Positions 1-57,939 are shown, numbered from the stretch's first letter. The stretch: DNA of 64,000 nt from a virus (IMGVR_UViG_3300029537_000168); one strand, 5' to 3'. The notes: generated from the letters alone by a model not told the origin. Numbers and translations are program-made.

Positions 1-105
1 CCTACTTCCTGTCCTTTTTCTACTTCTTTGACGAGTAGATGGTCGTTTTCGATTTTTGCGTACTTCATGTTGTCTATGGTTTTAAACGTTGCTATCAGTT
101 GTCCG

Positions 106-1578
106 TTATGCTCGCAGATATGCAGGTTCGCGGAGCTGTAGGGGGAGCCTCCTTTTCGGATAGTACCTTTCCGGCGGTCTGAATATGGAAGCATAGTCGT
201 TCAGGTTTAGATATGATGTCTTGTTAGATTTGTATTTGCTTTTCAACACACAGATGAACCGGCCGTTCTTGTTGCGGAAATACAGCGATTCGGAGAATGT
301 TTCCATGGCTTTCCCGGCTATGCGCTTTTTGATGTTGAAGGACGCTGTTCCTTTCATCAGGCCGAAATAGCTGTTTATGCTTTGCATGACGTGTACGGCG
401 TTGCTGTACGACGGTATCCGGCTGTATTCTTCTATCGCTGTATGGAGGGCATGTACTGTGCGGTTGGATATGTAGATACGGTTCAGCTTTACTACCTCTC
501 CGCAGAACTTTACTCCGTGTGAGGCCGGCTGTATGTAGAATTTATCGGGATGGACTTTTAGTTTCAGCCGTCCGGTCGCTTTTATGAATACTTTCCGGGC
601 ATGGATTATTTCGGCTGCTGTTTCTGCCACCACGCATATATCATCTACAAACCGTGTGTATCTCACTCCGGTTTTTATCATTTCCGCATCAGCTTCCGCC
701 ATGACGAGGTTTGCGAGGAGTTGGGAATAGAAGTTTCCTATCGGGAGTCCTTTATCGGGTGGAAGTCCGAAGAGGCTTTTGTTGGGCGGAACTTTATCCC
801 ACATTTTTATATCGGAGCGTCGCTCGCAGTCTGTGGCCGGATTGTGCTGTATCAGGGTGTGAAGCAGAGAGAGTTTTTCTTCTTTATCAGGCTTATCGTA
901 GTACATATCGGCGTATTTCCGCAAGATGCGGTATGCTGTTTCCTTGTCTATCGACATAAAGAAGCCTGATATGTCCATTGTGGCTACGAAGGCTTTCTTC
1001 CTGTAGCCGTCCGTTACATCACGGATGTTCCGCTGTATCTGCTCGATGGCTGTAGATGCGGAATGTCCGATACGGTTGCCGTGGCTTACATCACCATTGG
1101 CTTCATGGACTTTCTCGCATATCTCGCCGAGCATCGGGGCAACGTAGTGGTGCACTATGCGGTCGGTGTAGTTGGCGGCGAAAACTTCCCTATACACAGG
1201 ATAATCGAGGACAAAGCAGATGCTTGTCTGTGGCTGGTAGCCGTTGTCTATTCTGTTTATCAATTCATAAATACGCGACAGGTTGAAATGAAACGATGCT
1301 GCTTCGAGCGATGCGTGCTTGTTTTTGTAACAGTCGCTTTCGGCAGCTATCCAGGCGGGCACTTTTTCTGATAAATCGGAGGCCGGCACCACACTATAGG
1401 TGTTGTTCGTGTTGTTGTTGTTCAAGTTGCCATTGCCCATGTTCACATACCAGGCGTTGTTGCCATTGTTGCGGACACAGCTCCAGACGTTTCCGCCCAG
1501 GACTTCTGCCCTGTTAATCGAAATAGCTTGCTCACCGCAAGCACAGGGACCTTTATCATTAAACAGTTCTGCCGACAT
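106..1578 (-). CDS. DGR reverse transcriptase (bRT-like). The catalytic protein probably starts downstream of the TR, about 106..1370, and the ORF-track N-terminus reads through the TR in frame.
   Basis: RT palm motifs in the translation: FGLPPDKGLPIGNFYSQLLANLVMAEAD and YTRFVDDICVV (YxDD). It lies immediately downstream of an A-rich template repeat that matches the 3' end of the neighbouring tail-fibre gene. Confidence 0.85.
   Translation of the reverse strand: MSAELFNDKGPCACGEQAISINRAEVLGGNVWSCVRNNGNNAWYVNMGNGNLNNNNTNNTYSVVPASDLSEKVPAWIAAESDCYKNKHASLEAASFHFNLSRIYELINRIDNGYQPQTSICFVLDYPVYREVFAANYTDRIVHHYVAPMLGEICEKVHEANGDVSHGNRIGHSASTAIEQIQRNIRDVTDGYRKKAFVATMDISGFFMSIDKETAYRILRKYADMYYDKPDKEEKLSLLHTLIQHNPATDCERRSDIKMWDKVPPNKSLFGLPPDKGLPIGNFYSQLLANLVMAEADAEMIKTGVRYTRFVDDICVVAETAAEIIHARKVFIKATGRLKLKVHPDKFYIQPASHGVKFCGEVVKLNRIYISNRTVHALHTAIEEYSRIPSYSNAVHVMQSINSYFGLMKGTASFNIKKRIAGKAMETFSESLYFRNKNGRFICVLKSKYKSNKTSYLNLNDYASIFRPPERYYPKRRLPLQLREPAYLRA
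1377..1503 (-). repeat. DGR template repeat (TR), 127 bp
   Basis: 127/127 alignment to 2021..2147 with 10 mismatches. All 10 are T on the plus strand, which is A on the coding strand, and they fall in AAC (Asn) codons: NNGNN...GNGNLNNNNTNNTY. Confidence 0.85.
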
Positions 1579-1581
1579 AGT

Positions 1582-1935
1582 TCAAGACTTTTCGGATCTG
1601 ACATTCTTTATCCTCGCAAGCGAAGATAAAATATTATCGCACAAAACGTCTATTACAGACGCTTTCTCTTTGCTGCATCCTCCAAGAGCCACTATCAGGT
1701 ATATCCCGAACTGCAATTCGTATGTCAGTTCTGTAGCTCTTTTATAATAGTCCATTCCACGAACCTGGCGCATAGCGTAACTAAAAAGCAATGCGCCTTG
1801 CTTCAGCATAGGATCTATATATGTTCTGCTTATGACTTTATAAGCTTTGCTGTTGATTTCTATGAGACAATTATTCAGGCGTATAACGTCCTGAATAATT
1901 GGTGCGTCCAAATGTTTCCTCCCGGATCTATTCAT
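1582..1935 (-). CDS. DGR accessory variability determinant (Avd-like four-helix-bundle protein), putative
   Basis: 117-aa ORF placed exactly between the target gene/VR and the TR/RT, as in the canonical mtd-avd-TR-brt order. It is basic and helical, and its similarity to Avd is weak and positional. Confidence 0.45.
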   Translation of the reverse strand: MNRSGRKHLDAPIIQDVIRLNNCLIEINSKAYKVISRTYIDPMLKQGALLFSYAMRQVRGMDYYKRATELTYELQFGIYLIVALGGCSKEKASVIDVLCDNILSSLARIKNVRSEKS

Positions 1936-1985
1936 TTCTATTGTCGCGTATTAAATGTTAATATATTTTAATGCAAAAGTTGATG

Positions 1986-2004
1986 AGCCGTGCTCCGCAC
2001 GGCT
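1986..2004 (-). other. GC-rich hairpin immediately 3' of the VR (DGR homing-associated stem-loop)
   Basis: agccgtgc-tcc-gcacggct is a perfect 8-bp stem with a 3-nt loop, 9 nt downstream of the target stop codon. It is present next to the VR only, not next to the TR. Confidence 0.5.
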
Positions 2005-2012
2005 GAGATAAA

Positions 2013-3428
2013 TCAAAAAGCGGAGGCCGGCACCACACTATAGGTGTTGAACGTGTTGTTGCCGATCAAGTTGCCAACGCCCATGTTCACATACCAGGCG
2101 CTGTTGCCACCGTTGCGGACACAGCTCCAGACGTTTCCGCCCAGGACGCCAGGTATGCCCCATTTTTCATAACTGTTAAGATAGTTTATCAATCCTGAAA
2201 TTATGCTTTTATTAGTCCAGTATGGGTATAATTCTTTTTCTCCTGCCATGTATTTCCCAAGGGACTTAATGTAATACACCGCGTGAGAATCTGCCATATT
2301 CCAGTCGTAATTTGTACCAGAATTTCCCGGTCTGCTTATGTATGGGGTAATGATATACCAATACCCGTCTACAGTTATGGCTTCCGCTCCTTTTGCGCCC
2401 GGAGAAAGAAGAGGTCGTTCGGCGGAGTTTACTCCGGTGTCGTTCATGTTTACACCGTTTGTTTTCTGCTGTTCGTACAGCCATTCAGCGTATTCAGGTT
2501 TGAAATAGTATGCGTTGTTTACTGAATACTTATTATTTGTATTGTACATTGCTTTCAAACCTGTGTTCTGGCCGTTTACGAAGAAAAACATATCTTCGCC
2601 TGCCTGAGCCTGTACGCCTGATGAATTTAGGATTTCCACATTGGTTATTGTGCCTTCTGCTTCAGAAGATGCTATGCCGCTACAGATGGCAAACCTGTGG
2701 CGAAGCCATTCATTCTGTACATACATGGCTTCAAGACGTCCGGCGTAATTATCCGCTATCATAGCATTTACATTGCCGCAATTCTTTTCCATTATCCAGC
2801 GTTGCTTGGTATTACCGCTGTAAAGTTCAAGCTTATCGTCTTCAGTTACGGTTACGCTCCAGTCGGCTGCAAAGTGACTTCCTGCGGCGTGAGTACCAAG
2901 GTTTTCATCCACAGTTCCATGATAATCTGTACCCTCGCGCGCTCCAGTCATCTGGTCGTATTCAAACACGGAGTGTTGCATCGAGTTTGACGATTTGCTT
3001 GTACTGCCGGACGTGGCGTAATATTCTCCCTTCCACGGCCAATAAAGAATGGCTCTGATACCGTTACATTCCAAAGAAAAACCTACAGGAGGAGCAATGA
3101 GTTCATTGTCAAAGCCATTTGCCACACTTCGGTCGTTCCATTCTTTTACTGTGTAATGTTTCAGGTCTGCATCTACAATCTTGATATGGTCGTTTGTAGC
3201 TACGGCTGCCGTCTTGCCTTCTTTTGTTGTGATGGCTGTGGAGCGTACCGGCAGTATCAGCATTTGCGATTCAAGGGCGTATTCGTCCCCTGTCGGAATG
3301 GCTGCTATTTTAGCCGGGTATTCGGAAAGGATTTCTCCTACATTTTCTACACCCTTTGCCTCTATGGCGGCCTTTATTGCGGCTTTGCTTTCTTTCAGTT
3401 TGTTAAGTTTATCTGCTGTCGTTCCCAT
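2013..3428 (-). CDS. DGR target protein: phage tail-fibre / receptor-binding protein with a C-terminal variable (C-type-lectin-fold-like) region
   Basis: 471 aa. The C-terminus VLGGNVWSCVRNGGNSAWYVNMGVGNLIGNNTFNTYSVVPASAF is the VR translation. It lies in the late gene cluster. Confidence 0.8.
   Translation of the reverse strand: MGTTADKLNKLKESKAAIKAAIEAKGVENVGEILSEYPAKIAAIPTGDEYALESQMLILPVRSTAITTKEGKTAAVATNDHIKIVDADLKHYTVKEWNDRSVANGFDNELIAPPVGFSLECNGIRAILYWPWKGEYYATSGSTSKSSNSMQHSVFEYDQMTGAREGTDYHGTVDENLGTHAAGSHFAADWSVTVTEDDKLELYSGNTKQRWIMEKNCGNVNAMIADNYAGRLEAMYVQNEWLRHRFAICSGIASSEAEGTITNVEILNSSGVQAQAGEDMFFFVNGQNTGLKAMYNTNNKYSVNNAYYFKPEYAEWLYEQQKTNGVNMNDTGVNSAERPLLSPGAKGAEAITVDGYWYIITPYISRPGNSGTNYDWNMADSHAVYYIKSLGKYMAGEKELYPYWTNKSIISGLINYLNSYEKWGIPGVLGGNVWSCVRNGGNSAWYVNMGVGNLIGNNTFNTYSVVPASAF
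2021..2147 (-). repeat. DGR variable repeat (VR) at the 3' end of the target gene
   Basis: Counterpart of the TR. Substitutions occur only where the TR has A on the coding strand, giving N>G, S, V, I, G, F changes. Confidence 0.85.
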
Positions 3429-3679
3429 TATATCACCTCCCCGTTTACTTCATCAAGTACTGTGTTTATGTTTCCTATCGCATTGTTCAAATCCCGAGAG
3501 GTGGCGTACCCTTTCTGCGCAAGAGTTTCTTCTGTTACATATCCTTCAGGAACTTGCTTTAAAGAAGAATTTACTCCATCAACGAGTTCGTCTATCTTCT
3601 TCGTTATAGCGTTCATTTCTGCCGATTGCAAAACCTGTTCACGAGAAAAAGTTTTATTTAATTTCTGTATATCTGCCAT
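3428..3679 (-). CDS. Small hypothetical protein, start overlapping the DGR target gene (fibre-associated?)
   Basis: 83-aa ORF with ATG/stop overlap with the downstream gene. Call is by position only. Confidence 0.45.
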   Translation of the reverse strand: MADIQKLNKTFSREQVLQSAEMNAITKKIDELVDGVNSSLKQVPEGYVTEETLAQKGYATSRDLNNAIGNINTVLDEVNGEVI

Positions 3680-3822
3680 GGCATATTATTTTAATTTATT
3701 TACATCAAGCTTTCCTTTGTCGAGTACGAGGTATTTTTCTTCAGGAGGAGATATATGCTTTTTCTTCTTAATCTCACAGAATCTATACGTCAAAAGCTTA
3801 AACGTATTTAGCTTAATAGGTT

Positions 3823-4122
3823 TCATGATCCTGCCTCCCTTATGGTTGCTTTTGTGACTTTACTCGATACGACAATTTTAATATACTTAGGATAGACTGC
3901 ATGACAAAAATCTGCATCTATTACATCCCCCCACTTTAGTTCAATATATGAACGCCTATACTTTCCTTCATCACTTCCCCTTTGATAAATCTCCAATGTT
4001 CCTCCACTCTCCATTTCGATATGAAGATTATAGTCTGAGTTTACTTTTGTTTCTGATACAAATGATTTGCCTTCCTCATTAAATAATAATTCTCTCTGTT
4101 CCATGATATTTGTTTTTAGCAA
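3823..4122 (-). CDS. Hypothetical protein
   Basis: 99-aa ORF in the late-gene orientation. Confidence 0.35.
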   Translation of the reverse strand: MLKTNIMEQRELLFNEEGKSFVSETKVNSDYNLHIEMESGGTLEIYQRGSDEGKYRRSYIELKWGDVIDADFCHAVYPKYIKIVVSSKVTKATIREAGS

Positions 4123-4333
4123 AAATAAGTAACATACACAAAAATAAGAAGGACAAAAAAAACAGCTGTATATATATCGGATAAGACTACTTTTTTAAAA
4201 GGGAATCCAATTAAAATTGTCTCATATTTTATATTTTACACCGATTTTCAGCACTTTTTTGATTTAATCAGAAATTGTGAAACGCAAACACAACCAAATC
4301 AATATTTTTGCAATAAACAAACTACTTATTATT

Positions 4334-5008
4334 ATGAAAAAAAACTTATTTTTTACATTGACTTTAATTTTAATTATGTGCTTGTTTACTTCTTGCGGAA
4401 GTACATATATGGCTGTTTACGATTTAGGTCTTTCTTCTGTTGAAAGCCCTTCAGACTCAAAAGATCCATTTGGTAATTCGGAAATAGTAAAGATTTCTGA
4501 TGAAGTCCCTTCAAAAAATAAAAAGGCTCAGATTGTAAACAAATACAGATACACAGATAAATACATTGACATTGTGTGGTGGTACTCTACCACTCAGTTT
4601 GAATTTGAGCTGAAAAATGTTTCAGAAAAAACACTGAAAATAAATTGGGATGATGTAACCTTTATGGACTATACAGGTAATATAAGCCGGATTATGCACA
4701 AAGGAGTAAAATACATAGACAAAGATAAAAGTCAGGGAAGCATAAGCATACCCAAAAACGGAAAGCTAAACGATATTATAGTCCCTACGTCTAATGTATA
4801 TTTCAGTCAGGGGTTTGGCGTTTATGTTCCTTCTGAATGGAAACAAAAATCAATCATTCCATGTTTCTACAAGAGTAAGAAAGAAATGCAGAATGATATT
4901 GACAATAAAATTTGGATAGGTAAAAAAGTACAAATACTTTTCCCGATAGAGATTGAAGGAAAGAAAAATGACTACAATTTTGAATTTACAGTTAACGGTA
5001 CATACTGA
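4334..5008 (+). CDS. Lipoprotein (moron; possible superinfection-exclusion or surface protein)
   Basis: MKKNLFFTLTLILIMCLFTSCGS is a signal peptide plus lipobox Cys. Orientation is opposite to the flanking late genes, and the gene is AT-rich. A hairpin (9-bp stem aatgcagcc/ggctgcatt) follows at 5021..5068. Confidence 0.6.
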   Translation: MKKNLFFTLTLILIMCLFTSCGSTYMAVYDLGLSSVESPSDSKDPFGNSEIVKISDEVPSKNKKAQIVNKYRYTDKYIDIVWWYSTTQFEFELKNVSEKTLKINWDDVTFMDYTGNISRIMHKGVKYIDKDKSQGSISIPKNGKLNDIIVPTSNVYFSQGFGVYVPSEWKQKSIIPCFYKSKKEMQNDIDNKIWIGKKVQILFPIEIEGKKNDYNFEFTVNGTY

Positions 5009-7922: not shown

Positions 7923-8477
7923 CTACCATTGCAGCAGGTTGTAATTAAGCGTAACGCCCAGAAACGGTTCTGTCTTCCCTGAAAGCCCTATCCCGTATCC
8001 GGCGCTCAGTCCTATCCCCCACCTCTTTTTTTTCGGTGCCGGTGCATTTACCACCCCCGTCTGTGTGCGTCGGTAAAACTCTGCCGACACCATTTGCGGG
8101 CGATACCCTGAAATGACTATCCGGTAGTCGTCCGTACGGTATTCCTTCTCTGTGAGAGGAATAATCACGTCTACGCTGTCTGTTCCTGTAGAAAGCGAAT
8201 CAGAAACAACCGTAGCCGTATCCGCTATGCTGTCCGGAATGGAAGCTGACCCGGACGGTTTCTGCGGACGATATACCGGAAGGCGTGCGGTGTCTGTTCC
8301 TGCGGGACGCTCTGACACGGGAGGAGCAACTGCCGTGTCGCGTATCGTATCTACCCTGACGGGAAGCCATACGGTATCACCCTGACCAGACTGCGGCGAC
8401 GCGCATCCACGGAAGAAAAGCGAAAAGAGGAGCGCGGCCGACAGCAAGCCTACCAGTATCCACGGAAGCTGTTTCAT
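7923..8477 (-). CDS. Secreted protein or lipoprotein downstream of the endolysin (possible spanin-like lysis accessory)
   Basis: N-terminal signal peptide MKQLPWILVGLLSAALLFSLFFRGCAS. Start overlaps the amidase gene, and the protein has a C-terminal beta-strand-like tail. Confidence 0.45.
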   Translation of the reverse strand: MKQLPWILVGLLSAALLFSLFFRGCASPQSGQGDTVWLPVRVDTIRDTAVAPPVSERPAGTDTARLPVYRPQKPSGSASIPDSIADTATVVSDSLSTGTDSVDVIIPLTEKEYRTDDYRIVISGYRPQMVSAEFYRRTQTGVVNAPAPKKKRWGIGLSAGYGIGLSGKTEPFLGVTLNYNLLQW

Positions 8478-9046
8478 ACGCCCAGGTATTTACAGATTCC
8501 CTGCACATGCAGCGTGACAATCTTCTGGCGGCCTTCATCCGACAGAAGGAAGTCCACATCTTCGCGATTGTCCTGGAAAAGGTTTTCAGTCAGCACAGCC
8601 GGGCATACGGTGTGCTTCAGAATATAGAAACCGCTTTCCTTGTCGCTGTCGCCGTCGGCGGTGTCCTTGCGAATCTTCATGCCTTTCAGCACCTGCTCCG
8701 CACTCTGATACAGACATTCGGCCAGTTTGTCGGCCTTGGTCTGACCTACGCTGGTCCATGCCTCCCATCCGCGTGCGGTCATCCACTGCGTGCCGCTTCC
8801 GGCAGCGTTACAATGGACGGATACCAGGATGCTGTCTTTCACCCGGTTGGCGCGTGCGCACCGTTCCTGAAGCGAAATGTCTTCCTCTTCCGGAACGAGC
8901 AGCTGCACGTCGAGCCCTTTCTTCTTTAGCGCATCCACCACGCGGCGTGCAATGTCGCGTGCATAGGCATATTCACGCAACCGTCCGTCGGGCGACTGCT
9001 TCCCATTGGTGTCTGCACCATGACCGTTATCAATCCAGATTCTCAT
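8474..9046 (-). CDS. N-acetylmuramoyl-L-alanine amidase (Amidase_3-type endolysin)
   Basis: Motifs IDNGHGADTNG, SVHCNA and LTENLFQDN are typical of MurNAc-LAA. Confidence 0.85.
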   Translation of the reverse strand: MRIWIDNGHGADTNGKQSPDGRLREYAYARDIARRVVDALKKKGLDVQLLVPEEEDISLQERCARANRVKDSILVSVHCNAAGSGTQWMTARGWEAWTSVGQTKADKLAECLYQSAEQVLKGMKIRKDTADGDSDKESGFYILKHTVCPAVLTENLFQDNREDVDFLLSDEGRQKIVTLHVQGICKYLGV

Positions 9047-10344: not shown

Positions 10345-10743
10345 TTATTCCATCTCTTCCGTATTATCCTTAAAAAGAGCGGCAATAGCTTTTACCACAT
10401 CGTAGAAACCGCATCCGCTAAGGCCGGCAGCCAGTCCGTAAATAAGCGTTCCCCACCATTGGTATCCTTCGAGCAGAGGAGTAAGCTGAAGCGCCCATGC
10501 CAGCACGCACACCACCATACCTACCGCCACGCTCACACCGATTTTTGCGAACTTGCTTTCTGAAATGGCAGGAATGACTTTCAGGATCTGTGTCACGATG
10601 GCCGAAATAAGTGCTACGATTCCGGTAAACGTGCCCAGGTCGATTACAAATCCGGCAGTAGAAGGTTCAGAGGTTACAGCTTCCTGTGCGAAAACGGTCA
10701 CTGCAGAGATCAGCATTGCAAACAATAAAATCATCTTTTTCAT
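10345..10743 (-). CDS. Holin-like small membrane protein
   Basis: 132 aa with several hydrophobic helices and a charged C-terminus. It is the first gene of the lysis cassette upstream of the amidase. Confidence 0.5.
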   Translation of the reverse strand: MKKMILLFAMLISAVTVFAQEAVTSEPSTAGFVIDLGTFTGIVALISAIVTQILKVIPAISESKFAKIGVSVAVGMVVCVLAWALQLTPLLEGYQWWGTLIYGLAAGLSGCGFYDVVKAIAALFKDNTEEME

Positions 10744-10893: not shown

Positions 10894-11176
10894 AAAACTC
10901 TCATCGAAGAAGGGAATCCCTGTTTTCCCTATCACGCCGCTAAATTACAAAAAATATTTATTTCCGAATAAAACGGATATGTTTTTTTGATAATTGAATG
11001 CTTATTTGCACTTTAAAACAATAAAAAGGGGAATATACCTCTCTTGGAAATATCCCCCTTTATGCATCTAATAATTCATTAAGAATTATAGCTGCAAATA
11101 TAGCTTTTTATTATGATTGACATTTTGTTTATGCTTAATTTTTAATATATTTATAGTGCATCTAATAATAATCATT

Positions 11177-12322
11177 ATGAATAAAATTAAGTATGAGCTT
11201 GTAACACATCGTGTACACGGAGGAATGCTAGCTATTTTTGTGAAATGTTCACAGTATGGTTCTGTAATAGAACTAGATACTAATGTCAGAGTGTTTAATG
11301 ACGAATGGAGTGAAGAATCCGGACTTATTTCTAAAAGTCCAAATGCCGCTAATCTTAACCTGCTAATCAGAAAACTTGTGTATAACCTGGAAGAGATTGA
11401 ACTAACTTATTCTGGAGAAATTACATTGTCTAAATTGCATGACATATATTCAAAACGTGGAGCTTCTGCAGACTGGTATGCAATGTGGGAAAAATCCATG
11501 AATGAAAGAGGGTTAAAACCTCAGACTATAGAAATACATGCAAATGTTTTGAAGACTATAAAAAAATTCAAAGGTTCTTGTCCTGTCATATCATTGACAG
11601 AGGATTTCTTCCGCGGATTCATGGGATTTTTAATTAATTCCGGACTTAAATATTCAACCGTATGCAAGGAAATGCATGTTGTTAAGACATATTATAATAT
11701 CGCACGTAAATTGTATGGGAATAAGGTTCCATCGGATGCATTCGCTTTTTACCATGATCCAAAAGACCTGAACAATACTTATAAACTGAAGTCGTTAAGT
11801 GATGATGACATACGTAAGATTGAGAATTATGTAGCATCTGGGACGTTATCAGAAAGTAAAAAGCTAACTATCAATCAATTCTTATTCATGAGCTATTCTG
11901 GAACTAGGATAAGTGATTTTGCTTCTCTCAACGAAAAGAGCTTCAAGTTGGAAAATGATCGGATTTGGCTTGAATATAATTCCGTAAAAACAAATACACA
12001 TGTCAGAATACCTCTTTTTGCTCTGTTTGATGGAAGAGGTGAGCAAATATATAGCCAGTATCAGAATCGGCTTTCAGAGTTTTTTTATGTGGGGAGCAAT
12101 TGCAGATTCAATTCAAGGTTATCTTCCGCTCTTAAAGGAAGTGGACTTAACAAGCATGTAACCGCTCACGTTGCAAGACATACTTGCGCAAGCAGATTGA
12201 TTAATAGAAATGTTCCTATAACTACAATACAGCAAGTAATCGGTCATAGACAAATAAAGACTACGATGATATATGCAAAGATTGACGACAATTCGTTTGT
12301 AAGACAATTAAAAGGATTGTAA
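11177..12322 (+). CDS. int: Tyrosine recombinase / phage integrase
   Basis: C-terminal catalytic region HVARHTCASRLI...IQQVIGHRQIKTTMIYAKI carries the R..H..R..Y signature. It is a lone plus-strand gene among minus-strand late genes. The real start is MNKIKYEL at 11177. Confidence 0.85.
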   Translation: MNKIKYELVTHRVHGGMLAIFVKCSQYGSVIELDTNVRVFNDEWSEESGLISKSPNAANLNLLIRKLVYNLEEIELTYSGEITLSKLHDIYSKRGASADWYAMWEKSMNERGLKPQTIEIHANVLKTIKKFKGSCPVISLTEDFFRGFMGFLINSGLKYSTVCKEMHVVKTYYNIARKLYGNKVPSDAFAFYHDPKDLNNTYKLKSLSDDDIRKIENYVASGTLSESKKLTINQFLFMSYSGTRISDFASLNEKSFKLENDRIWLEYNSVKTNTHVRIPLFALFDGRGEQIYSQYQNRLSEFFYVGSNCRFNSRLSSALKGSGLNKHVTAHVARHTCASRLINRNVPITTIQQVIGHRQIKTTMIYAKIDDNSFVRQLKGL

Positions 12323-16915: not shown

Positions 16916-17338
16916 TTATTCGCTTCTGTCCATGGGATTCGGTTCGCAAAACTTACTTGAAACCTTACCGAAACACCTGTCAATACTTAACCCGTAAGAG
17001 ATGCTTTTCCCCAGGTAAACCAGCTTGAAGACTTCGCTCCCAAGAGCGGGGATTTTGATGTTTACGGCTCCCTTCTCCAGTTCTGACTGAAAGGCTTTCT
17101 TCTTTGTCCGATAGTCACCTTCTGAGTCTCCTTCTATGGTGAACTGGAGAGTGATTTCACGCGATGCTACTTTTGCATTGTCGGTTATTATTCGCTTCCC
17201 GTGCTCCAGACGGCTCTCATCTTCGATGTAGTCTTTCATCTGGTTGAATCCGTCGATAGCATCGAGAAAACTGTCACCCATGCGGACACCCCATGTGCTC
17301 CAGGCATCCTTCCCGTTAATAAATAAATCTCCTGTCAT
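16916..17338 (-). CDS. Distal tail protein (Dit-like)
   Basis: 140-aa ORF whose start overlaps the TMP stop. Call is positional. Confidence 0.45.
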   Translation of the reverse strand: MTGDLFINGKDAWSTWGVRMGDSFLDAIDGFNQMKDYIEDESRLEHGKRIITDNAKVASREITLQFTIEGDSEGDYRTKKKAFQSELEKGAVNIKIPALGSEVFKLVYLGKSISYGLSIDRCFGKVSSKFCEPNPMDRSE

Positions 17339-20300
17339 AGTCTTGCTGTATTACGTTTCACTTCGGCAATGTCGGCCTGCATCTGTTTGATAGGTTTGAC
17401 AATTTCGCCTGTGTTCTCTCTGATTTGCTGTAACTCCAAATAGGAATTGGCCAGGATAGTACGTGTCTCGTCGGCAATGTTGTACAGACCGGTCACTTGT
17501 GATGTCAGGGAGCCGATGGAACCTCGCAGTTCGGTAATAGCTACCGTTTGCTGCTGTTCTGCCGTCTCAATACGAAGATTGGACTCATACACGGCTGTAA
17601 ACCGCCCACTCAGTTCCCCGGCATCCTCGTGCGTCATTTCTGTACCGAATCCGCGGCTGGAGGCCGACTGCTTGGAACTGCTGCCAGCCTTGTCGTATCC
17701 GGTAGCTGCGGCAAGTTCATCCCGTAGTTTCAATGCTTCATTCACGTACCCCATATATTCGTTTTGGAGTGAATTACGTTCACTCTCACTCAGGTTTCCG
17801 TCCTTCATACTTTCACCGAATCTGTTCCACCAGTCTTCCAGCTTCTGGCTGTACATGTTACCGATTTTATCTGAAAGCATGGCACGCATAAAGTATTCTG
17901 ATAGGTTATCCGCAAAATCTTCCGCCGATGCATCCATATCCATAAGGGTATCGATGAAACTATCATACATGGAATCAAAACTTATTCCGGTAAGCTGTTC
18001 GAAAAGTCCCTCTTTCAGTCCTTCGAGGTTTCCGGCCAGATCTGCATATTCATCTAGTGCATCAACGACAGCATTTCCATAGCCTCCTTTTCCTGAATCG
18101 GCCATTTTCTGCCACAAGTCTACATTCTGACGTAATAAGTCCATCTGCTCCGGCGACATCTGCCACAAGGAATCTGTACCTGTGAATTCTGCCATGACAT
18201 TTTCTCGAATCCATTGTATGTCACTTTCCGACCAGCCCATGTAATAGGCCCAGCTATGATGCTTACTGTGATAGCCAGCATTTGCCTGCGCTTTTGCAAG
18301 GACATTCTTGTTGTATTCCTCCTGATACTTGATGGCTTTATTGTACTCTGCTACGGATTTCTCGCTTCCCTTGCTGGACTTCATTTCTTCCGTAAGGGAT
18401 TCGATGGCAGACTGCAACTTTTCGTTTCTGTCCGTGAGTCTGTTGATGGTATCCTGCACCTCTTTTTCGTTTCCTCCAATACCGAAAAGTTTGCTGAATC
18501 CGCCGAAAGTCAAAGTATCCCATATTCCACCTACAGACTTAAAGACACTACTGAATATGTTACCTACGAAACCATCCAGCCCCTGTGTCCCGATAGCATC
18601 TAAAAGAGAAAATGCAGCTCCAATTATACCTCCAAGTTTCTCGCTCTCTTCTGCAAATATGTCTACTATATTTCCGGCCAAATCACCGACCTGAGAGAGT
18701 GAAATTTCAGAATTTGAACCAAGCTGGGTAATGACGTTCGACAATGTGACAAGGTTGCTTGTCGTTTTATCTGTCGACTTTTGTACATTGACCTGAGCGT
18801 TCTGCTGTCTTTTTTGGGCATCATTCAGTTTCTTCGTGGCCGCTTCCTTCTGCTCATCTGTTCCGCTTCTCATGGCTTCGTTGTATTCCTCCTGAGCTTG
18901 TGACAGTTCTTCCTGTGCCTTGGCTAATTCGCTTAACTGTTTGGGTAGGTCGGCCAGCAATCCTCCTTTGTCGATAAGGGTTGACTGGATGTTGCTTAAA
19001 GCCTCGTCAATGACCTTCTTCTGGTCAACAGCCATATTCTTGTATTCTTCGGAGTTCTTGAAGTCCCTAAGCTGCTGCTTTACCTTGTTCAGGGACTTTT
19101 TGGATACCTTGTCCAAGTCACCGAAGATAAGTTCCCAGTTGATTCCCTGTTTCAGCTTCTCAAGATCAAGGGAGGAGAGTGCCTTATCCATTTCTTTCTG
19201 GAGTATGTCCTTGTCTCCCTGGGTAGTGGCTTCCGAGATTTTACGGGTGTACTCGGCTATGATTGCATCACGTTTCTGCATGAACGTACCGTAGCTTTTC
19301 AGGTAACGTTCGTTGGCCTCGATTGCAGCTTGATTTTCAGTTTCTGTAATTTCGGCCAGACCTTTTTCACGCGACGTCATGGCATTAGACGCACGACTTC
19401 CTAATACTTCCCGCTGTTCAGACGTAAGCTTTCCTCCTTGCGCATCTTCCCATTTTTTGCGCTGTTTCCTAATTTCATCGATTTCTCGCTGGTAATCCAG
19501 CTCAATCTGTCTGCGCTTCTTTTCAGAACCTTCTTCCATCAGGTTGATTTCTTCCTGCTGATTTGTTCTGCGAAGCTGAAGGAGTTCTTCTGCAACCTGT
19601 TGCTGCTCTTTCTTTTGTCGCTCGGCATCTTTCTTCGCATTATTCTCTTGTTTGGCCAGAGTGTCTCCTGTTACACCACCGAGCGATTTATATGATTTTT
19701 CTGCTGCTTCCAACTCTTCTACAGCTTTCTTATAAGCAGATTCAGTGCCTTTTTTAGCATCCTCTACGGCCTTTAATTTTGCTTCGTAAACAGCTTTTGC
19801 TTCTTTATATGCTTGCTGATACGTCTTTTCCGATGCTTCTCTTTGCGATTCCAGGCCAGATATGGTGCCGTCAATCCCTTTTAACGCTGCTTGCGCATTA
19901 TTGAACCGTATTTGAACGTCAATAGGAATTGTTGCAAAAGGAAAATTCTTAATTTTTTCTTGCTCTTCCTGCAATATTTGTCTTGCTATATTGTATTCGC
20001 GTATAATCTGCTCACGATTACTTCTTGCTTCCATCAGCTTGACTTCAACAGGTTTCGAGTTTTCCTCTGTTTCCTTTTTCAGTCGATTATATTCGCTCAA
20101 GGCTGATTTCCACTTGTTAAGATTTGCTTTTGCTGATTCTATTTGTGAAGCGATTAATGGGGCACCTTGTCCCGCATTTTTTAAAGAAGCATTTAATGAT
20201 TTTATTTTCTCCTCCCATTGTTGAATATTCTTTAGTATGTTTTCATAACTGTTCTTGTCTCGTTCCTTATTCAGTTCTTTATTTGCTTCTGCAAGATTGA

Positions 20301-21987
20301 GTACAGCCAGTTGTTCACGGGTATAAGCAGAAGAAAGTGCAGGAGAATACCTTTGTAGTTCCTCATAGGCCTTTATCTTTGAAAACTCGGTTTCTGTCTC
20401 ATCTTGGATAACGCGTATCAGCTCTTCTATTTTTTTCTTGCGTTCCTCTTCCTGATTCGCAAAATTCTTTTGTTCTTCATTGAATTTTTGCTGTGCCTTT
20501 TCCGATGCGGTTGTGCTGTCATGAAAGGCCCACATTGTAGCAACAAGCCCGGCAAGAACCGTAGCTGCCAGTACATACGGGTTAGCTTTCATAACCGTAT
20601 TCAAAGCCTTTTGTGCTATCATTTGAGCTTTGGTAACCAAGATTGCAAGTTCCATTCTGGCCGTTAATGTATCCTGAGCTATTCGCACTACAATAAGAGC
20701 GGTTTTATATGTCCCGTATGTAGCAATCAGTCCTATCAAAATCTTACCAACAGTTTCATAGTTCTCAATAAGACCTTTCAATCCTGAAATACCTGCAGAA
20801 GCAATTCCCTGAGTATCTTTTCCAATCTCATTCAACATTGTATCCCAAGCATCTCCAAGGTTACTCAACTGACCTGTAAGAGACTTAGACTGTTCTTGCA
20901 TCAGGTTATAATAGATTCCTGATTCACTAGTCATATTTTTGAAGGCCTGTTCTACTTCTTTAAATCCTACCTTGCCTTCCTTTACTAAACCGGAAACTTC
21001 ATCTTTTGTCACACCAAGCACTTTTGCCAGTTCCTCGTAGATGGGAATACCACGTCCTGCAAACTGACGAATATCGACAGCATAGGCTCTCCCTTGTGTC
21101 CTTAATGTGCCATAGAGATAGGCTATTTCACTAAGCTGGGAGCCAACACCGGCGGCTACATTACCAAGCATGACAAGTTCATCACCCACATTCTCAGCTG
21201 ACGAGCCGTAAGCAATCATTTGCTTGGCAGATGATGCCACCCCTTGAAGGTCGAAGGGTGTCTTTGCGGCAATATCCACCAGCTCTGACATCAGTTTATC
21301 TGCTTTTTCCTTACTTTTCAGCATGGTTGAAAAAGCAATTTCAAGCTGCTGGAATTGTCCTCGTACATTAACAAGTTCTGTAACAAAGTTTTTCAAGGCA
21401 GTTACTCCACCTATTATACCAAGTACTTTGGTTAAGGAAACGGACATCTTTTCATTTGCTTCGACCGTTTCGCCGGCTTCTTCCTTAAAAGCTGCATATT
21501 CATCCTTCAGTCTCTTTACTGAAAGACGGGCTTCTGCCTGCTGTTGAGTAAGTCCAAACAAAATATCTTTCTGCTCCCTTAACTTATCGGTTTGAGCTTT
21601 TATCTGCTCCGACATACCGCTGGTATTACCACCCGACTTTACAGTTTCTCGGTATTTCTCTTTCAATAAAGTAAGCTCATTTTGTAATTGCCTAATGACA
21701 CCCCTTTGTGAAGTAATATTTGCAGAGAGGTTGTTTACTGTTTGTGAAGCGCTGTAAATTCCATTTTTGAAATCACGCTCCATTGTAGCTCCAACTTTAG
21801 CCGCCTCGGTTACCAGCCCCATCATTTGTTGGCGAGCAGATGCCAATTGGGTTTCCAAAGCCCTTGCCGCTGCCGGAGATTTGTTCACGTCCATCTTTTT
21901 GAGTTGGGCTTCCAGCTTTTCACATTCTTGTCTTAGCTTTACGACCTGTTCCCAGTCACTTGATACACGGAATACGAGTGTTGCCAT
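17335..21987 (-). CDS. Tail tape measure protein
   Basis: 1550 aa, with long coiled-coil regions, Gly-rich hydrophobic segments and a C-terminal catalytic-like region. Size and position are typical of a TMP. Confidence 0.85.
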   Translation of the reverse strand: MATLVFRVSSDWEQVVKLRQECEKLEAQLKKMDVNKSPAAARALETQLASARQQMMGLVTEAAKVGATMERDFKNGIYSASQTVNNLSANITSQRGVIRQLQNELTLLKEKYRETVKSGGNTSGMSEQIKAQTDKLREQKDILFGLTQQQAEARLSVKRLKDEYAAFKEEAGETVEANEKMSVSLTKVLGIIGGVTALKNFVTELVNVRGQFQQLEIAFSTMLKSKEKADKLMSELVDIAAKTPFDLQGVASSAKQMIAYGSSAENVGDELVMLGNVAAGVGSQLSEIAYLYGTLRTQGRAYAVDIRQFAGRGIPIYEELAKVLGVTKDEVSGLVKEGKVGFKEVEQAFKNMTSESGIYYNLMQEQSKSLTGQLSNLGDAWDTMLNEIGKDTQGIASAGISGLKGLIENYETVGKILIGLIATYGTYKTALIVVRIAQDTLTARMELAILVTKAQMIAQKALNTVMKANPYVLAATVLAGLVATMWAFHDSTTASEKAQQKFNEEQKNFANQEEERKKKIEELIRVIQDETETEFSKIKAYEELQRYSPALSSAYTREQLAVLNLAEANKELNKERDKNSYENILKNIQQWEEKIKSLNASLKNAGQGAPLIASQIESAKANLNKWKSALSEYNRLKKETEENSKPVEVKLMEARSNREQIIREYNIARQILQEEQEKIKNFPFATIPIDVQIRFNNAQAALKGIDGTISGLESQREASEKTYQQAYKEAKAVYEAKLKAVEDAKKGTESAYKKAVEELEAAEKSYKSLGGVTGDTLAKQENNAKKDAERQKKEQQQVAEELLQLRRTNQQEEINLMEEGSEKKRRQIELDYQREIDEIRKQRKKWEDAQGGKLTSEQREVLGSRASNAMTSREKGLAEITETENQAAIEANERYLKSYGTFMQKRDAIIAEYTRKISEATTQGDKDILQKEMDKALSSLDLEKLKQGINWELIFGDLDKVSKKSLNKVKQQLRDFKNSEEYKNMAVDQKKVIDEALSNIQSTLIDKGGLLADLPKQLSELAKAQEELSQAQEEYNEAMRSGTDEQKEAATKKLNDAQKRQQNAQVNVQKSTDKTTSNLVTLSNVITQLGSNSEISLSQVGDLAGNIVDIFAEESEKLGGIIGAAFSLLDAIGTQGLDGFVGNIFSSVFKSVGGIWDTLTFGGFSKLFGIGGNEKEVQDTINRLTDRNEKLQSAIESLTEEMKSSKGSEKSVAEYNKAIKYQEEYNKNVLAKAQANAGYHSKHHSWAYYMGWSESDIQWIRENVMAEFTGTDSLWQMSPEQMDLLRQNVDLWQKMADSGKGGYGNAVVDALDEYADLAGNLEGLKEGLFEQLTGISFDSMYDSFIDTLMDMDASAEDFADNLSEYFMRAMLSDKIGNMYSQKLEDWWNRFGESMKDGNLSESERNSLQNEYMGYVNEALKLRDELAAATGYDKAGSSSKQSASSRGFGTEMTHEDAGELSGRFTAVYESNLRIETAEQQQTVAITELRGSIGSLTSQVTGLYNIADETRTILANSYLELQQIRENTGEIVKPIKQMQADIAEVKRNTARL

Positions 21988-22138
21988 AAATAAAAATCTA
22001 AATATTAATGCTTAAAATTATGATATAAGCAAATAGTATTCAGACTTTTTGAAATCAAAAACGAAACAACTTGGCAATTGTCGTGTAATTTAACTTCTAT
22101 TTTTGAATAATTAGACTCCATCTCGGAATAGAACAAAA

Positions 22139-22170
22139 AAGGCGCACCATTATGATGCGCCCGATTGTCA
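22139..22170 (-). terminator. Intrinsic terminator downstream of hicB (pair 1)
   Basis: ggcgca-ccattatga-tgcgcc hairpin followed on the minus strand by a T-run. Confidence 0.4.
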
Positions 22171-22211
22171 ATTTGTTCTTTAATTTATATCAGAGCCTCA
22201 CGGCTGGAATA

Positions 22212-22616
22212 TCAAAACTTGACATTTGCCATTCTTTTAAGTATCTCATTGTATTTTGATTGTATGATAGCTCTTTGCTTTTCTGATGCTGTAATTATCT
22301 TTCCTTTATACTTTCGCATTACAGATTCATTTATACCTATTTCCTTTGCAAACTTACTTGCATTAATAAAAGGGAACGCTTCAAAAAATCCACTTAAGTC
22401 ATACACATACTCCACAGAATAGCCAGCTTTATACCAACTTGGAAATTCACCATGTTTTTCTTTGTAATATTCTGCCTGTTCCTCTAAAACAGAAACAAAG
22501 TCCTCTTTCGCTTCTTGTTCTGTAAGCCCAAAGCCATACGCACCGTTTACATCTTCAGAATAGATAGAAATTCCTCCATCATCTGCTTTTTCAATAATAG
22601 CCTGAATCTTCTTCAT
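22212..22616 (-). CDS. hicB: HicB-family antitoxin (pair 1)
   Basis: 134 aa, with an RNase-H-like N-terminal part and a C-terminal HTH-like region. It lies directly downstream of a HicA-like ORF. Confidence 0.65.
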   Translation of the reverse strand: MKKIQAIIEKADDGGISIYSEDVNGAYGFGLTEQEAKEDFVSVLEEQAEYYKEKHGEFPSWYKAGYSVEYVYDLSGFFEAFPFINASKFAKEIGINESVMRKYKGKIITASEKQRAIIQSKYNEILKRMANVKF

Positions 22617-22674
22617 AATCGTGTATTTTAAGTTTTGTCAATTAAATGCACCCACCGAAGTGGGTGCTGTTCTT

Positions 22675-22860
22675 TTACTTCTTTAACCCCGCCTTTTTCA
22701 TCATGCTGTCAAGAGTACCTTTAGGTATCTCTTTGGCTGGATGTCTGCCTACAGGGATAAAGTAGTCAAAGTCGGGATGAACATACTTGTGATGTTTCTT
22801 TCCCTTTTCGATTGTCCAGCCTGCTGACTCAATCAATTTGTAAAACTCTGAAAACTTCAT
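22675..22860 (-). CDS. hicA: HicA-family mRNA-interferase toxin (pair 1)
   Basis: 61 aa, MKFSEFYKLIESAGWTIEKGKKHHKYVHPD...PVGRHPAKEIPKGTLDSMMKKAGL, matching the YcfA/HicA signature (GW..........H....P). Confidence 0.8.
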   Translation of the reverse strand: MKFSEFYKLIESAGWTIEKGKKHHKYVHPDFDYFIPVGRHPAKEIPKGTLDSMMKKAGLKK

Positions 22861-22978
22861 AAATCAAAGAACTTTTAATTGACAATGCAAAGGTAACATT
22901 TTCGTTACTATTAAGCAAGCTTTGTAACGTAAAAAAGTAACGTTTCTGTTGCTTTTTAACATTCTAATAGAGCCATAT

Positions 22979-28116: not shown

Positions 28117-28285
28117 ACCGTATGAGTTTGATTAATAATTTCATACGGTAAATTTACTTATAGAGAAAGGGAAGGGGAAATTTAAAGGCTAACGATACGA
28201 AACAATTAGGGAAATGTTCGTTTTTAGGTAAAAAGAAAGCGTGACTACCTAAATAATCACGCTAGATCATCATCCAATTATACTT

Positions 28286-28579
28286 TTAAAATTTCAATAT
28301 AGCTGCTTCTATTTCTTTTTTGTCAGAATCTTTTACGTTCCTTAAAGCATTCAGAAAAGGTAATATTAAAGAGTCATCAACGATGAACCAGACTGGGTTT
28401 TTAAATAATTTAGGGTATCCAGGATCATCTCCATAACCATTCCATCTCATTGCCATTCTTCTTTCCCCATTTTCCCAAATACCTATCGCTATAGAAAAAT
28501 CATCATTTTCAAATACAACATTCTCAACCTTAAAATTACTTGGATTTACATCTTTTGCTTTCATTGTACTATCCTCCAT
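28286..28579 (-). CDS. Hypothetical protein co-located with hicAB pair 2
   Basis: 97-aa ORF in an AT-rich segment. Confidence 0.4.
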   Translation of the reverse strand: MEDSTMKAKDVNPSNFKVENVVFENDDFSIAIGIWENGERRMAMRWNGYGDDPGYPKLFKNPVWFIVDDSLILPFLNALRNVKDSDKKEIEAAILKF

Positions 28580-28595
28580 TATATTTAATTAATAA

Positions 28596-29027
28596 TCATA
28601 ACAAATTTATAGCTGCCAGTTCCTCTGTCAGCGCGTTAATACCTTTCTGAATCTTCTCCAACTGCTGTTTACGGGGTTTGTGTACTCCAGCCGCATAATG
28701 CCATAACTGGCGCTCATTGATTCCGGTGATCCGGCTCAAAGCGGCCTTTGTGAAAATACTGCTGTAATAGTTGATGAAGGTGGCAGCATCTATCTTGAAC
28801 TTCAATGTGAACTCTCCCTGCAAAATTTCCACTGGAGCGATGTTCATCTCCTTGCATGACTCCAGGTAAAGTTCAACAGCTTCCTTCATGTTCTTCTCGA
28901 TTTCCTTCACGTCGTTACCGACAGTAATCACCGGAGCACCTTCAATATAGGCACTAAGATTATTTCCAGCATGTTCTACAATCACTTCTACGGTTTTCAT
29001 ACTGACCTCCTTTTTATCGTTAAACAA
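28596..29027 (-). CDS. hicB: HicB-family antitoxin with a C-terminal HTH (pair 2)
   Basis: 143 aa. The C-terminus LSRITGINERQLWHYAAGVHKPRKQQLEKIQKGI is an XRE-like HTH. It lies 12 nt downstream of a HicA-like ORF. Confidence 0.65.
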   Translation of the reverse strand: MFNDKKEVSMKTVEVIVEHAGNNLSAYIEGAPVITVGNDVKEIEKNMKEAVELYLESCKEMNIAPVEILQGEFTLKFKIDAATFINYYSSIFTKAALSRITGINERQLWHYAAGVHKPRKQQLEKIQKGINALTEELAAINLL

Positions 29028-29039
29028 AAGAGGCGGGGG

Positions 29040-29228
29040 CTATTTTAGCCCCGCTTGCCTCAGAATGTTGTAATAAGTGCCTTTCTCAACGCCTTTCTTG
29101 CCGTGGTCGGGTACAATCACTACATGGCTACCATCAGTGTAAACCATGTGACTGCCTTTCTGCCTCACGAACCAAAAGCCATTTTCAGTAAGCAGCGTTA
29201 CAACGTCTTTAACTGATTTGTAGCTCAT
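29040..29228 (-). CDS. hicA: HicA-family toxin (pair 2)
   Basis: 62 aa, MSYKSVKDVVTLLTENGFWFVRQKGSHMVY...VPDHGKKGVEKGTYYNILRQAGL, matching the HicA signature. Confidence 0.8.
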   Translation of the reverse strand: MSYKSVKDVVTLLTENGFWFVRQKGSHMVYTDGSHVVIVPDHGKKGVEKGTYYNILRQAGLK

Positions 29229-29416
29229 AGCGTTTAAGACTTAATTACGATGCAAATATAGTAAAATAACGAATAATTACAAAGAAGTATTCATGTTTTT
29301 ACTATGATAAAGGAAATAGCGATACCTCGAAAGATACCGCTACTCAAATAGTCAATATTTTAGATTTATATCATTCTGTTTTGTATTATCCCCGTAAATA
29401 TTCTGACTGGGTTGTT

Positions 29417-30928
29417 CTATTCTTCAGATTTACTGCTGGAACTTTTAAGAGAGGAAAGCTGTTTCTGCTTCTCGATGTCGTTCTTCTGTTTCTCAGATTG
29501 CTCTTCCTTGATGGCTTCAATCTCATCCAGAACTGCATCCACGTTCCCCACAAAGGTAATGGCCCGCTGTTGAGACCAGATTTCACCGTCCTTGGCCTTG
29601 ATAGCTGTGTCTATCTTGTCTTTGATGTCCTCCAGCTTATACGGCTGCATCTGCACATCCACATCGATGGTTTCGGAGGCTTCTTCAAGGGTGGAATTCA
29701 CGGAACCCAACGCGGAGACAAGGAAATTTACACGTCGTTGCATGAACTCGCCGACGATCTCGTTCAGATTTTCTACGTTAAGGTGGGTGGACATAAACAC
29801 ATAATCGAAAGTCACACCGGAAACGGCGTTTCCTGTACCTTTCAGGGAGTCAAAAGAGATTCTGGGTGTATTGGTCAGTCCATATATCTGGCTCAGCAAG
29901 GTTTCTACCTCGAACTTGACAGTATCAGGTACCTGTGACCAGGTAAGATACTGGGCATTTGCTCCCTGGCCGGTCAACTCGACAACACGGTTCTTGAACT
30001 CACCTGAGAAATTCTCCACGTTACCAAAAAGCATGAGGATAGGGAAGAAGTGGTAGTCGATACAGTCTGCATAGTTTGAGAGAAGCTTCTCCAGTCTTAC
30101 ACGGAGGCTCTTTATCTTTTCACAGTACGCTTCCGGACGGTACATATAAATCACCGGCATCTTCTTGAATCCATGTGCAAATGAGCCTTTGTCAGTCCAG
30201 TTGCTTGTCAGTTCCCACTGATAAACCATGTCCTTGGTAATGGTCATGAAGCAGGTAATCTCCACGTCATTCAGATCTTTCTTCTTGTATTCACGGGACA
30301 GGGCCACCAAATCCCCCTGGTCATTGAAGAAAGGGTAGAGCTTGTCGCCACGGAACGGAGACCAGATGGCACTCTTCAGACGGTATTCAGGTTTTGATTT
30401 GCCGAAGATTCCTGAAATCTTTCGTTTGAGCTTTGCCCAGAAGCCGTCATCCTTCACCACATACCAGTATTCGGCCACTTCCTGCTCGGCCAGCCATGCC
30501 CGGACTACTTTCTTGTTCTGGTATTTCAACTTGTTTTTCTTGAACACCTGCTTCAATGTGGAAAGAAGGCTTTCTTCCGACTGGTCCGGCTGGCAATCAA
30601 GGACCGGTTCTGTTCCCACGGTGAAGGCAGTCTGAATGTTCACGATGTCCTGCTCGATAGGAAGAGCAATCCTGTTCGGGTCAACTTCTTTCCTTGCCGC
30701 CGGCTCAACATATTCTTTCCCGGTTGTAGGGTCTGTAATCCGTTTCTCAGGCTGGGTCGTAATTTTGATTTTCGGGTATTTCTCTTCATCTATCACTATC
30801 TCGTGCTTGTTCGGATTCCAGTCGTTGTAAAGAGCGTGAGCGTTTGGTTGCTCGGTCTTTCGTCCTTTCTTCAGATAGTAGATTTTTCTCTCTACTTCCG
30901 GCATAGCTAAAATTTCTTCTATAGTCAT
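29417..30928 (-). CDS. Portal protein
   Basis: 503 aa immediately downstream of the large terminase gene. Confidence 0.65.
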   Translation of the reverse strand: MTIEEILAMPEVERKIYYLKKGRKTEQPNAHALYNDWNPNKHEIVIDEEKYPKIKITTQPEKRITDPTTGKEYVEPAARKEVDPNRIALPIEQDIVNIQTAFTVGTEPVLDCQPDQSEESLLSTLKQVFKKNKLKYQNKKVVRAWLAEQEVAEYWYVVKDDGFWAKLKRKISGIFGKSKPEYRLKSAIWSPFRGDKLYPFFNDQGDLVALSREYKKKDLNDVEITCFMTITKDMVYQWELTSNWTDKGSFAHGFKKMPVIYMYRPEAYCEKIKSLRVRLEKLLSNYADCIDYHFFPILMLFGNVENFSGEFKNRVVELTGQGANAQYLTWSQVPDTVKFEVETLLSQIYGLTNTPRISFDSLKGTGNAVSGVTFDYVFMSTHLNVENLNEIVGEFMQRRVNFLVSALGSVNSTLEEASETIDVDVQMQPYKLEDIKDKIDTAIKAKDGEIWSQQRAITFVGNVDAVLDEIEAIKEEQSEKQKNDIEKQKQLSSLKSSSSKSEE

Positions 30929-30938
30929 ATCTCAAAGT

Positions 30939-32608: not shown

Positions 32609-32631
32609 GCGCGCGTATCTGTTTATTTTGA

Positions 32632-34018: not shown

Positions 34019-34232
34019 GATTAAACAACTCTACCGCCAACTGCTCTGTTGATTCTCGCTCTCTGAGCAGCGTTTGTGCCCATTGATTGAAAACGTCCAG
34101 CTTCATAATCAGCTCTTGTTCGGTACGTTCTACCGTCTGAAGCTGTTGCATAAACTTCTGCCATAATCACTTTTTTTAAGTTACACAATCTTTTTACCTA
34201 TATGCAGACAAAGCCGCATAAAGCGGCTTGAC

Positions 34233-57917: not shown

Positions 57918-57939
57918 AGTTTAAGTATTTGATTGTTTG

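Follow-up and report, generated by a model that had tools for sequence, protein, structure and literature searches.

A phage-borne diversity-generating retroelement with its template repeat inside the reverse transcriptase reading frame

We describe here a locus on IMGVR_UViG_3300029537_000168, a stretch of viral DNA of 64,000 nucleotides (nt) that was analysed as a whole and is called the window below. Positions 106 to 3428 hold three open reading frames (ORFs), a pair of direct repeats and a hairpin, all on the minus strand, and these almost certainly make up a phage-borne diversity-generating retroelement (DGR) in the common order of target gene with variable repeat (VR), hairpin, avd-like accessory gene, template repeat (TR) and reverse transcriptase (RT) gene. 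The element is an ordinary representative of a well-known type, with an unusual layout in which the TR lies inside the RT ORF. Its parts are the following (aa, amino acids; pI, isoelectric point; IMH, initiation of mutagenic homing):

2013..3428, minus strand: target gene, 471 aa, with a conserved body and a hypervariable C-terminus
2017..2147, minus strand: VR, the final 42-43 codons of the 471-aa target ORF 2013..3428
2021..2034, minus strand: IMH-like boundary, the GC-rich sequence GGTGCCGGCCTCCG that closes the VR on its 3' side; its TR copy is 1377-1390
1986..2004, minus strand: GC hairpin 3' of the VR, AGCCGTGC-GGA-GCACGGCT, with an 8-bp stem and a 3-nt loop
1582..1935, minus strand: accessory gene, 117 aa, pI 9.5, Avd-like by predicted fold, of a divergent family
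1373..1503, minus strand: TR, making up codons 26-69 of the RT ORF, in the frame of the VR
106..1578, minus strand: RT ORF, 490 aa, in which aa 1-25 form a leader, aa 26-69 are the peptide encoded by the TR and aa ~72-446 the core, followed by a basic C-terminal tail
241..1365, minus strand: RT core, homologous to the Bordetella DGR RT, with LPIGNFYSQLLAN (motif 4/B) and FVDD (motif C)

A repeat search returned a single strong direct repeat in the region, 131 nt long and 92% identical between 1373-1503 and 2017-2147; a search for a further VR or repeat copy in the 64-kb window found none. On the coding (minus) strand the two copies differ by 11 mismatches in 131 nt, and at 11/11 of these the TR base is adenine, a pattern that would arise by chance with p ~2.7e-7 (37 A in 131 nt). 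A preliminary description of the locus had reported a 127-nt core (1377-1503 / 2021-2147) with 10 mismatches, all at TR adenines, and had placed the VR at the end of the 471-aa ORF; the first statement is exact and the second holds, and the eleventh mismatch, TR A1376 / VR C2020, lies just beyond that core. All 11 substitutions fall at codon positions 1 or 2 of the target ORF, and in the commonest TR variant the same positions hold every adenine (36/36). The TR contains 14 Asn codons (12 AAC and 2 AAT), which together with 8 others give 22 variable codons, none of them able to mutate to a stop. With adenines at positions 1 and 2 of these codons, ~1e21 peptides are thus reachable, free of stops.

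As a proxy for activity, independent assemblies from different samples stood in for reads of the source sample. Look-ups of exact proteins, together with a scan of IMG/VR (sources ENA, JGI, Logan and IMG/VR) yielded 31 loci with RTs 95-98% identical, corresponding to 28-29 distinct TR/VR pairs, and each VR was compared with its own TR. Over these pairs, 443 VR mismatches lie at TR adenines and 4 at other bases (4/447); substitutions reach 34/36 adenine positions in one VR or another, and a single VR carries a median of 16 of them. By comparison with its VRs, the TR is nearly constant over the 31 loci, with 9 variants that are 1-3 substitutions apart, one of them with a 3-nt deletion, and where TR polymorphisms are present they are found in the VR too. 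One locus (L008) encodes an RT protein identical to that of the window and has the same TR, together with a different VR. Ongoing mutagenic retrohoming would be expected to produce such a pattern in this lineage which, judging from these sequence comparisons, is evidently active. Adenine-tied VR variation within a population, proposed at the outset as a check on the DGR interpretation, is therefore seen, by assembly proxy instead of reads, and nothing in it contradicts that interpretation.

The RT ORF matches Pfam RVT_1 (5.5e-15) and phrog_1423, reverse transcriptase (2e-50, aa 78-446). Single-sequence comparisons did not discriminate among RT classes. A family profile built from the window RT and 26 relatives has as its best PDB match the RT of the Bordetella phage DGR (bRT, 8ub7_A, from a structure of the DGR ribonucleoprotein; 82 bits, E 2.6e-22), compared with 53 bits for Cas6-RT-Cas1, 49 for a group II maturase and at most 42 for retron RTs. 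In the alignment with 8ub7_A, GIPIGSLTSQLFAN pairs with GLPIGNFYSQLIAN and the YMDD of bRT with F-V-D-D, so that the catalytic box is FVDD and not a YxDD, as had been claimed. The motif LPIGNFYSQ, of the IGxxxSQ type, is also present, and the columns of motif 4/B and FVDD are invariant in the 27 sequences. A group II intron or retron RT was tried and rejected (TIGR04416 73 bits against a cut-off of 300; retron St85 model 55 against 235), and an Rfam scan of 1-4300 found no group II intron or retron RNA. An adenine-only TR/VR pair lies near the RT in 56-60/78 viral loci with RT relatives, the range depending on the trimming and search range used, and RT relatives also occur in Bacteroides, Prevotella, Paludibacteraceae and Muribaculaceae genomes. 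The preliminary description had named group II intron and retron RTs as the classes to be compared; the DGR RT comes out best, and the comparisons support an RT of the DGR type.

The TR had been taken to lie between the avd-like and RT genes. While the order of the parts stands, the TR is not intergenic, since it forms codons 26-69 of the RT ORF. The ATG of this ORF is placed 3 nt past the stop codon of the accessory gene (junction TGA-ACT-ATG), and the bRT-like core begins straight after the TR, with no non-coding spacer between the two; in the 8ub7_A alignment, bRT residue 13 pairs with profile position 68, immediately after the TR. RT homologues down to 37% identity align as a short leader, a TR-like Asn-rich peptide and the core, in that order. 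We surveyed 55 viral loci in which the RT is at least 38% identical and a TR was detected. The TR is open in the VR frame, continuing into an RT ORF of 476-530 codons, in 51/51 loci with an uninterrupted RT ORF; it is open too in L057, L058 and L070, where the RT ORF is shortened by a contig end or a break, and one short locus (L059), the 1/55 exception, does not show the read-through. An ATG is found upstream of the TR in every one of these loci, often 3 nt after the accessory stop codon or overlapping it. The same read-through was found in 11/11 Bacteroidales genome loci with an RT of at least 40% identity and a detected TR. At the junction of TR and core, indels comprise whole codons, and no start codon is conserved there across lineages. 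Distant DGRs are mixed in this respect, and those with the classical layout close the TR frame after 54-112 codons.

Overlap of the TR with the start of the RT ORF, at its 5' end, has been published as one of the DGR architecture classes, 'group 3' (PMC3521204, 2012), and the element described here shares it. The DiGReF survey records an overlap with the 'annotated' RT ORF and does not address translation of the TR (PMC3521204); nor did we find any discussion of the TR being translated in the literature on the TR-in-RT layout. The conservation of an in-frame TR across a Bacteroidales clade, to ~38% RT identity and tied to the accessory stop codon, goes beyond what that survey describes (PMC3521204). 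From this comparative picture, translation through the TR is likely. It is doubtful, in our view, that the TR-encoded peptide, which is a copy of the C-terminal strands of the target, has a function as a fusion to the RT and is not merely tolerated. If it were functional, we speculate that it might keep the nascent RT on the very RNA that it is to copy (cis preference), or that ribosome traffic over the TR might gate the availability of the RNA as template; coding sequence would in that case contain the priming region as well.

The 117-aa accessory protein had been called avd-like beforehand, a claim which holds for the predicted fold and fails for sequence models, bAvd PF22296 and PF05635 included. 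Single-sequence searches of Pfam, PHROGs, NCBIfam and PDB sequences gave no match, a profile of the family found no Avd among PDB sequences, and one of 8 relatives matches PF05635, at E 0.11. Distant DGR loci carry canonical accessory proteins (4/6 matching Pfam bAvd), and the positional counterparts in related loci are a separate family of their own; compared with a canonical bAvd-type set from the distant loci, this family reaches an hhalign probability of 3-9%, which is not significant. A word-index search gave only 4 near-identical accessory proteins; an exhaustive search of 1.84 billion proteins returned 33 cluster representatives, and the alignment was built from the latter search. The structure predicted from a 22-sequence alignment is, with high confidence, a four-helix bundle (predicted local distance difference test score, pLDDT, 95; predicted template-modelling score, pTM, 0.86). 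In a Foldseek comparison against the PDB, the top 15 matches are all Avd or S23-IVP relatives (template-modelling score, TM, 0.56-0.81); they come from 2gsc, 2rld and 4dwl and from the Avd chains in 8ub7, 8ub8 and 8ube. With a pI of 9.5 the protein lies at the published mean for Avd proteins (PMC5758913). We regard it as Avd-like in its predicted fold, its position and its charge, and by no sequence model is it a member. In one relative (P0274), the accessory ORF continues into the RT leader peptide (...KGLPTCPHRQVTS), in the frame of the P0063 RT leader, which reflects either a fusion of the accessory protein with the RT or a misassembly.

Directly after the GC-rich end of the VR, GGTGCCGGCCTCCG, the TR has A and the VR has C at 1376/2020, a difference that holds without exception in the 28-29 pairs and is shared by most other lineages with repeat ends examined, some of them with RTs only 28-36% identical. 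As codons, the first difference past the shared repeat end is GAN in the TR and GCN in the VR, and it may be a conserved marker of donor versus recipient. The hairpin begins 12 nt beyond the repeat end of the VR and has a DNA dG of -9.4 kcal/mol (z -3.4), with 0/200 shuffles as stable. No comparable hairpin is found in the TR flank (dG -1), and a GC hairpin 3' of the VR only, as had been noted before, is therefore real. It was not called as an intrinsic terminator and is without a T-run. Throughout the clade the hairpin retains the core CGTGC-GGA(N)-GCACG, and changes in the outer stem are compensatory (AGCC/GGCT, GTC/GAC, ATC/GAT, ACAA/TTGT). Hairpin and boundary match the arrangement of IMH plus inverted repeat in BPP-1 (PMC5758913), and by analogy the GC-rich boundary would act as the IMH and the hairpin would have a role in homing.

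Following the BPP-1 model, the avd-like and RT genes would be cotranscribed, and the same RNA would carry the TR. The RT, together with the basic four-helix-bundle accessory protein, would copy the TR to cDNA; synthesis would start within the GC-rich stretch at the 3' end of the TR, with bases placed at random opposite template adenines. This cDNA would then take the place of the VR, at the 3' end of the gene for the 471-aa target. The VR would be marked as recipient by its GC-rich boundary and by the hairpin beside it, and the fixed A/C difference would separate the two repeat ends.

The target had been described as tail-fibre-like, which our searches do not support. The protein resembles nothing that has been annotated (Pfam, PHROGs, NCBIfam and the PDB gave no match, nor did tblastn in 50,697 phage records), and the gene is situated 4.6 kb beyond the lysis genes, outside the tail module. 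Homologues of the target number 387, and the 120 listed are all at least 54% identical and all without a Pfam domain; in an alignment of 31, the body is conserved and the C-terminus scrambled. The N-terminal ~400 aa hold no known domain. Pfam Lcl_C (formerly DUF1566) gives a weak match in 10/32 close homologues and none in the window protein itself; in targets of more distant DGRs from this RT family the match lies in the C-terminus that bears the VR, and the target of L072 is the sole case above the cut-off (7e-10). This lead fits the DUF1566-type category of DGR targets, in which weak and mixed matches are usual (PMC5758913). Given the heavy diversification of one protein in human guts that the between-sample comparison reveals, the 471-aa protein is likely a host-interaction determinant. 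It may be a virion or receptor-binding protein, and we infer that it binds a host receptor.

Whether the RT ORF truly begins upstream of the TR has to be weighed against an annotation artefact, in which the RT would start non-canonically at or after the 3' end of the TR (e.g. at GTG 1362-1360) and the TR would stay untranslated as in BPP-1. A TR copied from a coding VR is stop-free in that frame by construction, and an artefact would agree with a bRT alignment that starts only just after the TR, with a leader (aa 1-25) conserved far less than the core, with the presence of a GTG codon after the TR in the window, and with the mention of only an 'annotated' ORF overlap in the DiGReF survey (PMC3521204). 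However, the GTG is not conserved, being GTT, GTA or GTC in other lineages, and no start codon between the TR and the core is conserved across lineages. The frame is maintained through the junction indels in all clade lineages examined, the upstream ATG with its frequent link to the accessory stop codon is always present, and in the distant DGRs of classical layout the TR frame closes after 54-112 codons. We regard the artefact as the rather unlikely explanation, and translation through the TR as the better one.

At the level of the whole element, the preliminary description had already proposed a DGR, and VR variation, RT profile and the predicted fold of the accessory protein support this. 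We consider it very improbable that the element is a fossil, recently inactivated in this genome and with TR/VR differences that are historical. The window is one genome only, VR differences between samples could predate inactivation, and DGRs with an inactivated RT and clean adenine-only repeats are known (PMC3521204); yet all three ORFs are intact, as are the catalytic FVDD and motif B, non-adenine mismatches are nearly nil (4/447), and L008 shows a different VR beside the same RT protein and TR. Hardly any weight is due to the idea of an RT from a different class, be it that of group II introns, of retrons or of defence RTs such as DRT/Abi, beside a repeat that is an ordinary duplication. 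A single-sequence search does put Cas6-RT-Cas1 and a group II RT slightly above bRT, and NCBIfam matches only group II, retron and DRT models, but every one of these matches is far under its cut-off, the family profile favours bRT by ~30 bits, and no intron or retron RNA was found; a duplication would moreover leave unexplained both the adenine-only mismatches and their recurrence in 56-60 related loci. Some points nonetheless count against our interpretation of an active DGR with a translated TR. The diversity is that between assemblies of different samples, from which activity in this genome itself is extrapolated, and the argument for translation through the TR is a comparative one. The C-type lectin (CLec) scaffold of the target is unproven, as the AlphaFold2 model of the full protein (32 sequences) has a pLDDT of 40 and is unusable. 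In addition, RNAalifold, run in 10 lineages on the 3' end of the TR and the 170 nt that follow it, found no conserved RNA structure 3' of the TR (consensus -1.2 kcal/mol), and the priming mechanism may thus differ from that of BPP-1.

The Bordetella phage BPP-1 (mtd - avd - TR - brt) is the obvious system for comparison. The gene order, the VR at the 3' end of the target, the adenine-only differences, the GC-rich 3' end of the repeat, the GC hairpin at the VR only and the RT motifs IGxxxSQ and xxDD are all alike. Unlike in BPP-1, the RT has 490 aa instead of 328, the TR lies in frame inside the RT ORF, the accessory protein is missed by the bAvd Pfam model, and the target lacks similarity to Mtd, its VR resembling the Lcl_C/DUF1566 type and not the Mtd type. 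In BPP-1, TR and brt are separated by a 140-nt non-coding spacer, of which A56 primes the cDNA and almost all is required (PMC6182149), whereas here there is no such spacer; a conserved in-frame TR of this kind does not fit the RNA layout of BPP-1. As the core follows directly after the TR, any counterpart of the BPP-1 priming spacer would lie within RT coding sequence.

Closer in layout is the cultured Bacteroides phage BS-TP1 (PQ571274.1, host B. salyersiae), with a genome of ~110 kb and the same order of target, 'four helix bundle protein' and 493-aa RT, and with a TR-encoded peptide in frame within the annotated RT coding sequence. It differs in that its RT is only 33% identical, there is no nucleotide similarity, and the target is far larger (coding sequence 28212-34775, ~2,190 aa). 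Since the layout is present in this cultured phage, both TR translation and the priming site can be tested directly there. For BS-TP2, the terminase of which is 91% identical to that of the window, there is no nucleotide match to the cassette and none to the target protein, and this phage is not among the 25 RT matches listed. Hankyphage and Bacuni_F1/F2/F4 likewise carry DGRs of gut Bacteroides phages with a small accessory ORF beside the RT (PMC6199706, PMC8143477). The Bacuni RTs, however, are 30-31% identical and match from residue 77 only, i.e. without the TR-encoded part; Hankyphage has a 2,225-aa target and 117-bp repeats (PMC6199706), and it is not among the 25 RT matches listed, beyond which there are 20 more. 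With targets of category 'd', e.g. Legionella LdtA (Wu et al. 2018, PMC5758913), the element shares the match of relatives' VR C-termini to Lcl_C; the window protein itself differs from them in having no Lcl_C match and in being the product of a phage gene and not a lipoprotein of the bacterial surface.

That gut phages abound in DGRs is already known, and the element alone adds little to this. What makes it of interest is the divergent Avd-like family, which is invisible to sequence models, and the conserved TR-inside-RT layout. The accessory family is missed by current Avd models, and finders relying on these would score such cassettes as Avd-less.

The rest of the window is a siphovirus-like phage genome which, read leftwards, encodes a helicase and methyltransferase, terminase, portal, major head protein and tape measure. 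The genes that serve as landmarks are:

30939-32207: large terminase
17335-21987: tape measure, followed by a 1102-aa protein
11117-12322, plus strand: tyrosine integrase, on the opposite strand, between the tail module and holin/endolysin
10345-10743 and 8474-9046, minus strand: holin and endolysin, followed by small genes without assigned function and then the DGR

The cassette had been located at the end of the late region. In related contigs, three small genes and a second tape-measure gene of ~1,950 aa (L007 9165-13473) follow on the same strand beyond the left edge of the window; same-strand genes therefore run on past the RT, and the cassette is not at the late-region end. Related contigs (IMG/VR L009-L037 and L052) cluster at 105-110 kb with the DGR at an offset of 5 kb to 88 kb, which suggests that they are complete, circularly permuted genomes of ~108 kb. 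Two tape-measure genes in one genome of ~108 kb are odd, and the genome may be a composite of two elements. An inserted prophage within the window was also considered and dropped; for att-like direct repeats, the integrase and tRNA-like regions share only a 14-mer.

Megablast of 1-4200, 1-25000 and 25001-50000 against 50,697 phage records gave no match to the cassette. The sole nucleotide match within 1-50000 is at 22134-22920, 83% to BS-TP2, over a HicA/HicB toxin-antitoxin pair; the terminase, for all its 91% protein identity to that of BS-TP2, has no megablast match. A near-identical prophage was not found in GTDB species representatives, and the host of this uncultured phage would be a member of the gut Bacteroidales, with no finer placement.

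Several single genes in the window stand out. Among the leftward genes, 4277-5008 (plus strand) is a lone opposite-strand ORF that matches no family and carries a lipoprotein-type signal peptide (…LIMCLFTSCGS); it resembles a moron, and possibly encodes a surface or exclusion protein. Beside the early genes, at 57939-58015 (minus strand), ARAGORN calls a tRNA-like gene with a four-base anticodon (gggt), to which no identity was assigned. The ORF at 60521-61354 (plus strand) resembles an S24-peptidase (LexA/CI-like) repressor, with the motif GDSMYPLL identified by eye; together with the integrase and an anti-repressor (34828-35961), this repressor-like ORF suggests a temperate lifestyle.

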